From the IMG/VR virus record IMGVR_UViG_3300031853_000023, positions 7,254 through 71,253 of that record: a stretch of 64,000 nucleotides of DNA. One strand, given 5' to 3'. Both the position numbers and the translations under genes were made by a program. How positions within the stretch are numbered: position 1 is the stretch's first letter; every line of letters begins with the position of its first letter. Below, piece by piece: positions 40,332 to 43,271 of the stretch. The notes beneath the pieces are model-generated. The model saw only the letters and a program-made list of their open reading frames with translations. It had not been told where the DNA came from and searched no databases. The stretch comes from a virus.

Positions 40332-42051
40332 ATGCCAAATAAGCTATATGATGAAAATAGCATACAAAGCCTTTCACCACTCGAATTTACCAGACTTCGA
40401 CCTGGTGTTTACTGCGGAAGTACAGAATATTCAACTCAACTTGTCATTGAGGTTGTATCTAATGCTATTGATGAATTTAAAGCAGGACATGGAAATCTTA
40501 TTGAGGTAAAAATTGATACAATAGGCGATATTAGCTATATGGTTCGAGATTATGGGCAAGGTTTTCTTGTCAATTCATTAAGAGAAGATGGAAAAACAGT
40601 TCTTCAGGCGGCTTTTGATACACTTAATACATCAGGTAAATTTTCTGATGATGGTGTATATGAAGGTACCGCTCTTGGTTTAAATGGTATTGGTTGTAAA
40701 CTTGTAAACTTCTTATCTCATAAAATGGAAGTTGAAACTTTCAGAGATGGAATGACAGAAAGCATCTTTTTTGAAGAAGGTGTTTTTGTTAATAGAAAAA
40801 TTGACAAAAGCAAAGAACCTTCTGGTACATATGTAAGATGGCAACCATCAGAAGAATTTTTTACGCATCAAAATGCAGATTTTAATAAATTAAAAGAACT
40901 ATTTCATATTCTTGTATGTTTATGTCCTGGTTTAACTATTGAATTAACAATAGACAATAAAAAAGAAACATTTTCATCAAAAAATGGACTTAATGATTTA
41001 GTTGATGATGCAGTAAATGATACTGAAATTATAAATTCTCGTATGAATATGAATTTTGATGCAGGAAAAAATAAACTTGATATGGTTCTTACCTATACAT
41101 CAAAATATTCATTAAATATGATTTCTTATGTCAATACAGGAGAAACTGACTCAGGTCCGCACATTACTCAAATAAAAACTATTATAACCAGAGAATTTAA
41201 TAAGTTTTTTAAAGAGAAAAAATGGTTAAAAGAAAAAGATGAAAATTTAGGCGGCGATGATATTCAAGAAGGAATGTTTATTGCATTTAATTTAACTGCC
41301 CCTGGTATATCATATGATGCGCAGACAAAATCAAGAATTGTGAAAATTGATATGTCACCCTTCACTGCGGCAATTGCATCATCATTAAGAAAATGGTTTG
41401 AAACAAATGAGAAAGATGTAAAACTGATTTTTGAAAAAGCAACCGCCGCACGAAAAGCAAGAGATGCTGCAAAGAAGGCAAGAGACAAAGCAAGAGAACA
41501 AAATAAAAAGAAACAAAAAGCCCTTAAATTTGATAGTAAACTTGCGGATTGCTGGTCTAAGGATCGCATGAAATGCGAGATATATGTGACTGAAGGCGAC
41601 TCGGCCTCAGGAAATTTGAAACTGGCTCGTAATAATGAATTTGTTGCGGTTATGCCTGTCCGCGGAAAAATTCTTAATGTAAGAAAAGCTACACTTGATA
41701 AAATTCAAAAAAATGCAGAAATTATGACAATGATTGATGCTTTTGGTTTAATTATTGACCCAAAAACAATGAAACTTACATATAATAAAGAAGATTTAAG
41801 ATATGGTAAGATTATTATTGAATCAGATGCTGATTCAGATGGGAGCCATATCAAAAATTTGTTTTATACTTTTATATGGACATTTTGTCCACAATTAATT
41901 TTAGATGGATATATTTATGCTGGCGTCCCTCCTCTTTATAAAATTACAGAGGGTAAAGATACTTATATCTATTTAAAAAACGATGCAGAACTTGAAGAAT
42001 ATAGAACTCATCATAAAGGAAAAAAATATCTCGTTAATCGCTTGAAAGGGT
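40332..42051 (+). CDS. gyrB: DNA gyrase/topoisomerase IV subunit B-like, exon 1 (ATPase plus Toprim)
   Basis: GHKL ATPase and Toprim (EIYVTEGDSASG). The ORF's last nucleotide is T42051, which precedes the TAA at 42051..42053. Confidence 0.65.
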
Positions 42052-43089
42052 AAGAGTTAGTCTGGCCCTTAGCTACTTTTCCGCTAATCAGCGGGGTTGT
42101 CTATAAAGACAGCTAACGAGGTAGTCTTCTATTTAAAAATTTTTTTTAGACATTTTAGGATAATTTGAAATGTGAAATTTTTATAATATATAGAAGATAA
42201 TCTCGTGGGAAAAAACTACGATATTATCTCCAAAAAATTAAAGGAGATAAAATAAAGTGATAGGAATTTATAAAATTACAAATTTAGTGAATGATCATAG
42301 TTATATTGGATTATCTACTCATATTGAGGACAGATGGGAATATCATAAAAATCCATATAATTGGAATAGAGAAAAAAATAAATCTTTATACAAAGCAATT
42401 TTAAAATATGGTATTGAAAATTTTTCTTTTGAAATACTTGAATAGTGTTCTTCAGAAGAATTGGGATAGAAAGAAAAATATTATATTGAAAAATATAATA
42501 CTTATCATGCTGGTTATAATATGACTGCTGGTGGAGAAGATAATCAAGGTGATAGTCACCCAAGACATAAATTAACAAAAGAAGATGTTATAGATATTAG
42601 AACCAGATATGATAATCTTGAAAGAAAAAAAGAAGTTTATTAGTTGTATAAAGATAAAATTGGAGAAAGTGGTTTTTCTAAAATTTGGAAAGGTAACACT
42701 TGGACTTCTGTAATGATGGAAGTTTACACTCCATAGAATAAAAAATATCATTTACATGATACGGCAAACAAAGGTTCTCAAAATGGAAGATCCAGATTAA
42801 CTGAATAGGATGTAAAAAATATTCGATTAAGAAGAAAAAATGGTGAAAAATTATCTGATGTATATGCAGATTATGAACATCTTTTAACTAAAGGATCATT
42901 TACAAATGTTTGGTCATATCAAAATTGGAAAAATATTGTAGTTTAAACCTGTATCGACTATCCCTTTTGTCGGGGAGTACATCTCTTATTGATACAGAGA
43001 TGGAAATGGTAGCACCCTAAGATCTCAGTTAAAGCGTTAGAGAGAGGGTAAGAAATAGTCAGTGCCATTAGTGATAATGGAATAACATG
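42052..43089 (+). mobile_element. Group I intron in gyrB carrying a GIY-YIG homing endonuclease
   Basis: P1 pairs AAGGGU with GCCCUU and has a U.G wobble at the 5' splice site. P7 has 5' GACUAUC (42955..) and 3' AUAGUCAG (43065..). P9 hairpin CCATT/AATGG. Last intron nucleotide is G43089. Exon 2 restores the GyrB C-terminus (...KG|LGEMSPDE...LMGTQIIPRKRFIQQHS). Confidence 0.6.
42257..42946 (+). CDS. Intron-encoded GIY-YIG homing endonuclease (I-TevI-like) with 5 in-frame TAG
   Basis: GIYKITNLVNDHSYIGLS..RW..H..YNTYHAGYN. GTG start with RBS AAAGGAGATAAAATAAA. TAA at 42944..42946. Confidence 0.55.
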
Positions 43090-43271
43090 TAGGAGAGATG
43101 TCACCAGATGAGACTTCAATTTTAGTAGATCCAGATAAAAGAATTATTAAACAAATAACCGTGGAAGATGTTGCAGCAACTAATAAATTATTTGATGATT
43201 TAATGGGTACTCAAATTATTCCAAGAAAAAGATTTATTCAACAGCATAGTAAGGAGGCTCGCTATGACTGA
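43090..43271 (+). CDS. gyrB: gyrB exon 2 (C-terminal 60 aa)
   Basis: The translation matches the conserved GyrB C-terminal tail. TGA at 43269..43271. Confidence 0.55.

Follow-up and report, generated by a model that had tools for sequence, protein, structure and literature searches.

A gyrB/parE-like phage gene very probably split by a td-type group I intron that carries a GIY-YIG endonuclease gene with in-frame TAG codons

What interrupts the gene for a topoisomerase B subunit in a virus genome, and how could the full-length protein still be made? The question is raised by a stretch of 64,000 nucleotides (nt) from the IMG/VR virus record IMGVR_UViG_3300031853_000023 (positions 7,254 to 71,253 of that record), called the window here. 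A GyrB-like open reading frame (ORF), 40332..42053, closes in it at a TAA (42051-42053), and the conserved GyrB C-terminus resumes at 43090. An earlier note on this DNA had pointed out both positions and had read the insert as a group I intron with a GIY-YIG homing endonuclease, and the analysis described here bears out the positions and supports each part of that reading. The locus is very probably a gyrB-like gene split by a mobile td-type (IA2-like) group I intron with a GIY-YIG homing endonuclease gene. Such an element is real, of a textbook kind and unsurprising to a specialist; its rarity had been overrated, and the five in-frame TAG codons of the endonuclease ORF had been missed. The only unusual feature of this intron is that its endonuclease needs TAG to be read as an amino acid.

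Joining positions 40332-42051 to 43090-43271 yields an in-frame ORF of 1902 nt for 633 amino acids (aa), ...YLVNRLKG^LGEMSPDETS...QQHSKEARYD (the caret marks the join), with AAAGGGU-UAGGAGAG as the predicted ligated exons and LKGLGEMSPDETSILVDPDK as the predicted junction peptide. The spliced product was found to align end to end with the ParE protein of S. pneumoniae (4juo_C, E 3e-102), gap-free at the junction, where 'nrlkglgemspdet' of the window stands opposite 'qrykglgemnadql', and many GyrB structures likewise align with it over the full length. The Pfam families DNA_gyraseB, Toprim and DNA_gyraseB_C exceed their cut-offs on this protein, the last of them over residues 564-624, bridging the join at 573/574, and HATPase_c scores 25.2 bits, slightly under its cut-off of 26.4. 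The domain order of a type IIA B subunit (GHKL ATPase, transducer, Toprim, C-terminal tail) is present. By these similarities the host gene codes for the B subunit of a type IIA topoisomerase of the phage, called GyrB/ParE-like here as a term that does not separate the gyrase from the topoisomerase IV type.

The earlier note had described exon 2 as standing in a frame that only splicing could join. The intron is 1038 nt long (3 x 346), so the exons share the genomic frame; read-through is blocked because the insert holds 24 stops in that frame, 16 of them TAA or TGA, starting with the TAA at the 5' splice site. A length that is a multiple of three would also suit an intein, or another in-frame insertion removed from the protein after translation, and inteins are known from both GyrB and GyrA. 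This reading is refuted by the same 24 stops, the first of which stands at the junction, and the endonuclease ORF lies in a different frame from the exons; the probability left to it is negligible.

Comparison with related genomes shows the insertion to be exact. IMG/VR was scanned with the spliced protein as query, and among the 232 relatives obtained the protein is uninterrupted in nearly all. Intron-less close relatives read AAAGGGT^TAGGAGAG exactly at the insertion point, which settles the insertion site by the comparison that had been proposed for it. One of them, L001, with about 87% DNA identity around the site, reads AAAGGGTTAGGAGAGATG, i.e. ...CTAAAAGGGT^TAGGAGAGATGTCACC..., matching the predicted ligated exons. 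The insertion splits a Leu codon of the conserved motif KG-LGEM between its first and second base. In two independent contigs, L006 and L068, the protein match ends at residue 573 and the same insert follows, at 96% and 94% identity respectively, which rules out an assembly artefact.

The intron family was collected from IMG/VR with the exact pattern CCTGTATCGACTATC-N65-95-ATAGTCAG, which located the core motif in at least 119 viral loci. (Another pattern, GACTATCCC..GGGGAGTA, gave zero matches over the loci and was dropped as too specific.) The same gyrB site is occupied in at least 22 distinct loci: a long endonuclease ORF is present in 14 of them, seven introns are ORF-less, and in L104 the ORF has decayed, the longest one left being of 82 codons. 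Excision at the intron boundaries gives back the exact reading frame in every one of the 22, and the homologues at this site end in ...ACAYG^UAGG. To judge from the sequences, intron-less, ORF-bearing, decayed and ORF-less alleles together form the classic pattern of homing, endonuclease decay and loss. One gyrB intron-less relative, L008, has a family member about 1.6 kb downstream (about 6600-7680, core 7553-7653, with an ORF containing 3 TAGs); it apparently sits inside the neighbouring gyrA-like gene, and the topoisomerase operon seems to have been hit at more than one site.

The structure of the intron RNA was derived by anchored parsing of 82 distinct family members. The order of elements is the same in all 82: P1, P3, two hairpins, J3/4 UAA, P4, J4/5, P5, J5/4, P4', P6 GGG, P6a with or without an ORF, P6', J6/7, P7, P7.1, AGUA, P7.2, GAAAU, P3', P8, J8/7, P7' and the P9 hairpin, followed by a short tail and the final G (positions in Table 1). 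Covariation among these members was found in P3, P3.1, P3.2, P4, P7.1, P7.2, P8 and P9. The strands of P3 are paired in 79-99% of members against about 43% after shuffling, and each position shows four types of pair; P3.1 and P3.2 covary strongly (99-100% against 40-50%), and one P4 pair is A-U in 42 members and G-C in 40. In a MAFFT alignment of 36 members, A1, 94.4% of the cells are paired, compared with 69% after shuffling and 34-43% with slid partners, and the covariation score of 0.70, against 0.19 for shuffled alignments, was reached by 0 of 500 shuffles. P6a is a plain hairpin in the ORF-less homologues. P3.1 is an optional pairing of group I introns (PMC3873408).

Several elements named in the earlier note fit this structure, namely the pairing of exon AAGGGU with GCCCUU and its U.G at the splice site, the GACUAU/AUAGUC pairing of P7, the P9 hairpin with a final G at 43089, and the location of the endonuclease ORF in a peripheral loop, here that of P6a. 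The offset of the guide was corrected: GCCCUU begins at intron position 14, preceded by 13 nt and not by nine. The P1 arrangement recurs in the homologous introns at the gyrB site, and a family-wide test of P1 is only moderately informative owing to its variable register. The pairings UUAGCU/AGCUAA, GGUAGUC/GACUAUC (as P7) and AGGU/ACCU (as P6) were also considered and rejected, being conserved neither in a homologue from Lactococcus phages nor in the family; the adopted P3 and P4 covary. As a separate observation, the pair of extra hairpins is preceded by a near-invariant UUUU and followed by GG in the 82 members, and the UUUUCC ahead of P3.1 is complementary to an invariant GGGAAA following P4'.

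A covariance model, R1, was built from the 36-member alignment with no window sequence included. R1 matched positions 42945-43089 with 114.8 bits (E 1e-26), well outside what chance would give, and the match ended exactly at G43089. Applied to the T4 td intron, the same model gave 50.4 bits (E 1e-10) and aligned P7, P7.1, P7.2, P8 and P9 helix for helix, which is independent evidence of homology between the family and a known self-splicing ribozyme. The R1 match, the covariation in the family and the homology to td together support the proposal that the insert is a group I intron.

The ORF in the P6a loop was translated with TAG as Gln. Pfam GIY-YIG (PF01541) matches its residues 2-88 with an E of 6e-9, phrog_7168 ('homing endonuclease') matches residues 1-228 with 1e-35, and its best match in the PDB is the catalytic domain of I-TevI (1mk0, E 1e-4, residues 3-90), in line with the GIY-YIG identity first proposed. 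The GIY and YIG motifs, R26, E73 (aligned with position 75 of I-TevI) and N87 are all present. Five in-frame TAGs lie within the ORF, at 42443, 42467, 42641, 42734 and 42806. Under the standard code it ends after 62 aa, and since the catalytic Glu73 and Asn87 lie beyond the first two TAGs, that product would be inactive. Upstream of the GUG start, the Shine-Dalgarno sequence is held in a hairpin that appears in the minimum-free-energy fold, and whose stem covaries among homologues (UUAUCUUACU/AGUGAGGUAA and UCCUCCU/AGGAGGA).

TAG is very probably read as sense in this genome, and only this would leave the endonuclease ORF intact. With TAG as sense, the coding density of the window (stop-to-stop ORF coverage) goes up from 64% to 93%, and one ORF then spans 3150 aa with 69 TAGs (21146-30595, minus strand). 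Large structural-type ORFs and endonucleases are rich in TAG, and a lysin-like ORF (36922-38514) has 4; it is absent from the replication genes, namely gyrB, gyrA (43419-45800), 46049-48187, and the dnaB-like and PolIII-alpha-like genes. Over the 22 gyrB-site loci, just 2 of the 10,344 codons of gyrB exon 1 are TAG, compared with 59 of the 3,374 codons of the endonuclease ORFs. The residue inserted is probably Gln: the nearest homologue lacking these TAGs has Gln opposite 4 of the 5, and more distant homologues have Glu there.

Several points weigh against a spliced intron with a working endonuclease gene, and they concern the Rfam model, the subclass, the make-up of the family, the splicing step, a known split topoisomerase and the decoding of TAG. 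The Rfam model Intron_gpI (RF00028) gave no match in the whole window at its gathering score, nor in 41900-43350 at E<=10, and it also missed the ORF-less homologue of Lactococcus phage LW81 (E<=1); a search of four related loci was likewise negative. As a control, RF00028 scored the T4 td intron itself at 40.3 bits, under its own gathering score of 50; the miss is therefore not decisive against an intron, and RF00028 is weak and insensitive for this intron class. The covariance-model check suggested in the earlier note thus failed with Rfam and succeeded with R1, which also links the family to td. The subclass IA2 stood in part: P7.1 and P7.2 fit it, and the absence of P2 together with two extra hairpins between P3 and J3/4 does not, so that the intron is not canonical and is best described as IA2-like. 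P6 and P7 are uninformative on covariation, being invariant by ascertainment, since the family was gathered by means of these very sequences. The joining of the exons as RNA is itself read out of sequence comparison.

The topoisomerase of phage T4 consists of gp39 and gp60, and a split large subunit works there. Here too the gene might be split and never spliced, its product being a GyrB fragment of 573 aa that assembles non-covalently with a 57-aa peptide from ATG 43098. An ORF does begin at this ATG with GGAG immediately upstream, and the GenBank record of LW81 likewise lists two separate 'subunit B' coding sequences (CDS). The GGAG and ATG, however, simply belong to the codons of the conserved Gly-Glu-Met, and just 3 nt separate the end of the GGAG from the ATG. 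A split gene would also leave unexplained a conserved, covarying, td-homologous spacer RNA, the exact restoration of the frame in all 22 gyrB-site loci, and the retention of about 290 nt of structured RNA in the ORF-less versions, for which a simple gene split has no need. A permanently split gene is accordingly regarded as highly improbable, and the spliced intron is retained as the explanation.

As for the decoding of TAG, a search for tRNA genes found none in the 64-kb window and no suppressor tRNA near gyrB in 60 relatives, and alignment is the sole basis for assigning Gln. The intron might then be real and its endonuclease a decaying pseudogene, the five TAGs being true stops, with splicing kept and mobility lost. 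The 62-aa end under the standard code, the missing suppressor tRNA and the existence of decayed or ORF-less versions at the same site (e.g. L104 and L081) would agree with this. All five internal stops, however, are TAG, with no TAA, TGA or frameshift among them; the whole window is coding only with TAG as sense; the homing-endonuclease profile matches residues 1-228; and the protein is 93-99% identical over its full length to those of L006 and L166, the parts beyond the TAGs included, with TAG positions aligned to Gln or Glu. Decay of the endonuclease is thus very unlikely, and an intact, TAG-containing gene is the reading adopted.

In the proposed mechanism, the intron RNA would fold into a ribozyme core composed of P1 with its U.G, the P3/P7 pseudoknot, P4-P6, P7.1/P7.2, P8 and P9. 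An external guanosine would attack after U42051, and the freed exon 1 would then attack after G43089, joining the exons into the mRNA for the 633-aa protein; ribosomes on unspliced RNA would halt immediately at the TAA straddling the 5' splice site. By analogy with I-TevI, the endonuclease may cut intron-less gyrB alleles in a co-infecting relative, at a target around AAAGGGT^TAGGAGAG, and repair of the cut would copy the intron into them. The cut made by I-TevI itself falls 23-25 nt upstream of the insertion site.

The five TAGs and the ribosome-binding site held in a hairpin suggest that synthesis of the endonuclease probably waits until late infection, when TAG is being decoded. I-TevI in T4 is controlled by a hairpin plus a late promoter. 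If late synthesis is true, ribosomes would be kept off the intron early, guarding ribozyme folding and gyrB expression, and DNA cleavage would be confined to late infection, a codon-level counterpart of the promoter and hairpin control of I-TevI. It is a tentative suggestion that TAG reassignment acts as a general timer for selfish endonucleases in this phage lineage. TAGs are carried by intron endonucleases of three families and by a free-standing GIY-YIG gene, and the invaded replication genes are without them; a fourth intron endonuclease gene has no TAG in its visible start. The TAG-free gyrB set against its TAG-rich endonuclease offers a clean natural data set for testing the recoding-timed expression of late and selfish genes. 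Recoded stops have been proposed to delay an intron endonuclease until late infection in the TGA-recoded Agate phages (Borges et al., bioRxiv 10.1101/2021.08.26.457843). The Agate case is alike in that the endonuclease of a group I intron inside an early gene has many copies of the stop codon that was reassigned, and differs in the codon, which is TGA as Trp in Agate phages and TAG, probably as Gln, in the window. The timing idea has thus already been published for TGA; what would be new is its generality and the double lock.

The closest well-known relative is the T4 td intron, which shares the core layout (P7 GACUAU/AUAGUC, P7.1, the AGUA linker, P7.2, P3', P8 and P9 with a GUGA loop), the endonuclease ORF in the P6a loop, a GIY-YIG enzyme and an in-frame stop after the 5' splice site. 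The Shine-Dalgarno sequence of the td endonuclease is reportedly held in a hairpin as well, a feature shared with the window intron. Unlike td, the window intron lies in gyrB/parE, lacks P2, has P3.1 and P3.2, ends in a single P9 hairpin with no P9.1 or P9.2, and encodes an endonuclease with TAG sense codons. The C-terminal region of this endonuclease has no detectable similarity to the DNA-binding domain of I-TevI and contains repeated (K/R)LTxxDVxxIR motifs.

Among cultured phages, the 2.9-kb region taken as a whole had no BLAST match in INPHARED, and relatives were found with the 156-nt 3' core alone, which hit unannotated DNA in the Lactococcus phages LW81, AM1-AM12 and P1048 (Audreyjarvisvirus) and the Enterococcus phages EF1 and EF5. 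The Lactococcus intron has the same KG^LGE site, the same P1 and guide and full-length homology to the window intron, with compensatory changes in P3, P3.1, P3.2, P7.1 and P7.2; it differs in being ORF-less, about 290 nt long and short in P8, and its host phage uses the standard code. In LW81 (L081 2320-2607; KY554777.1 58339-58626) it fills a 288-nt gap at SKG^LGE between two CDS, both annotated 'subunit B of ATP-hydrolyzing DNA topoisomerase', and the topoisomerase records of LW81, AM1-AM12 and P1048 probably need re-annotation. In EF1 and EF5 a related intron lies between two 'hypothetical' CDS (L082, about 2500-2636). A search of one literature collection for a group I intron in a phage gyrB found no description, which is weak evidence of absence.

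Homologues of this intron are thus already present, unannotated, in GenBank phage genomes. At the window locus, standard gene callers would give a truncated gyrB, a small orphan ORF and a 62-aa endonuclease fragment, and introns combined with TAG recoding can badly fragment the gene calls of metagenomic phages. The single group I model of Rfam misses this abundant family, and a dedicated model would recover many introns.

Table 1. Positions of the exons, the intron, its RNA elements and the endonuclease gene in the window.
Feature	Position	Strand	Remarks
gyrB/parE-like exon 1	40332..42051	+	573 codons and first base of the Leu574 codon; zero TAG codons
gyrB/parE-like exon 2	43090..43271	+	last two bases of Leu574, then GEMSPDE...KEARYD; TGA stop 43269-43271
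Group I intron, td/IA2-like, 1038 nt	42052..43089	+	terminal guanosine G43089; model R1 ends there; intron-less alleles
P1	42046..42070	+	exon AAGGGU 42046-42051 / guide GCCCUU 42065-42070; wobble U42051.G42065 at 5' splice site
P3 5' strand GCUACU	42072..42077	+	pairs with GGUAGC 43008-43013; pseudoknot with P7
P3.1 CCGCU-AAUC-AGCGG	42081-42094	+	extra hairpin between P3 and J3/4
P3.2 GUUGUCU-AUAA-AGACAGC	42096-42113	+	extra hairpin between P3 and J3/4
P4-P6 domain, 5' side	42114..42209	+	J3/4 UAA, J4/5 GUAG, J5/4 UAAU
P4 ACGAG/CUCGU	42116-42120 / 42202-42206	+	covariation
P5 UCUUCUAU/AUAGAAGA	42125-42132 / 42190-42197	+	base pairs covary
P6 GGG/CCU	42207-42209 / 42948-42950	+	read from sequence; 3' strand within the R1 match
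P6a AAACUAC/GUAGUUU	42213..42219 / 42938-42944	+	endonuclease ORF in its loop
Hairpin UUAUCUCC/GGAGAUAA	42224..42250	+	sequesters endonuclease Shine-Dalgarno; 6 nt upstream of GUG start
GIY-YIG homing endonuclease gene	42257..42946	+	229 codons, GTG start, TAA stop, in P6a loop
J6/7 GUAUC	42951-42955	+	covered by R1
P7 GACUAU/AUAGUC	42956-42961 / 43055-43060	+	core
P7.1	42962-42975	+	covaries
P7.2 CAUCUCU-UAUUGAUAC-AGAGAUG	42980-43002	+	covaries
P3 3' strand GGUAGC	43008-43013	+	covaries
P8	43014-43049	+	covaries; followed by J8/7 AAGAA
P9 CCAUUA-GUGA-UAAUGG	43065-43080	+	all six pairs covary; followed by 9-nt tail AAUAACAUG ending in G43089

At least two and probably three further introns are present in the window. 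The second intron, of the same family, spans about 49823-50805 (region 49594-51230), and its stretch 50648-50818 reaches 55.4 bits with R1. The gene that it splits, at ...APLYW^WKEMDTYKV, is conserved among phages, and after joining, the product is collinear with phrog_6721, of unknown function (E 2e-54). The intron ORF (49973-50671) contains 5 TAGs, and its PHROG matches are to families whose names are HNH, homing or intron-encoded nuclease. The identification of this host gene as thyX was withdrawn, as there was no Pfam match and PHROGs gave only phrog_6721. A free-standing ORF immediately upstream of the same host gene, 48695-49597, contains 12 in-frame TAGs and has a GIY-YIG domain at its C-terminus (Pfam E 7e-11), and by its sequence looks like a Seg-like homing endonuclease.

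The third intron, of group I type, lies in a DnaB-like helicase gene (54414-57181), with Pfam DnaB_C spanning the proposed join ...AKAIAD^KIDCG. Its core (56774-56903) was matched by R1 with 33.5 bits (E 1.6e-6), and the ORF within the intron, 55810-56643, encodes a LAGLIDADG endonuclease and contains 7 in-frame TAGs. A fourth intron is probable at 61883-64000, after an ORF of the PHP/DNA-polymerase-III-alpha kind ending in ...DLPFWR at about 63215. In this candidate the motif GCUAACCGGGAAGCC, at about 63330, resembles P4, and R1 matches the core at 63504-63625 only weakly (13.2 bits, E 0.17). A GIY-YIG ORF runs from about 63660 off the window end, and its first 113 codons are free of TAG.

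Next to the gyrB locus itself, the gyrA-like gene follows downstream at 43419-45800. Between gyrB exon 2 and this gene lies a Cys-rich ORF of 70 aa (…CDKCLELRDCKKCKENY…) at 43264-43476, which shares 8 nt with the end of gyrB.

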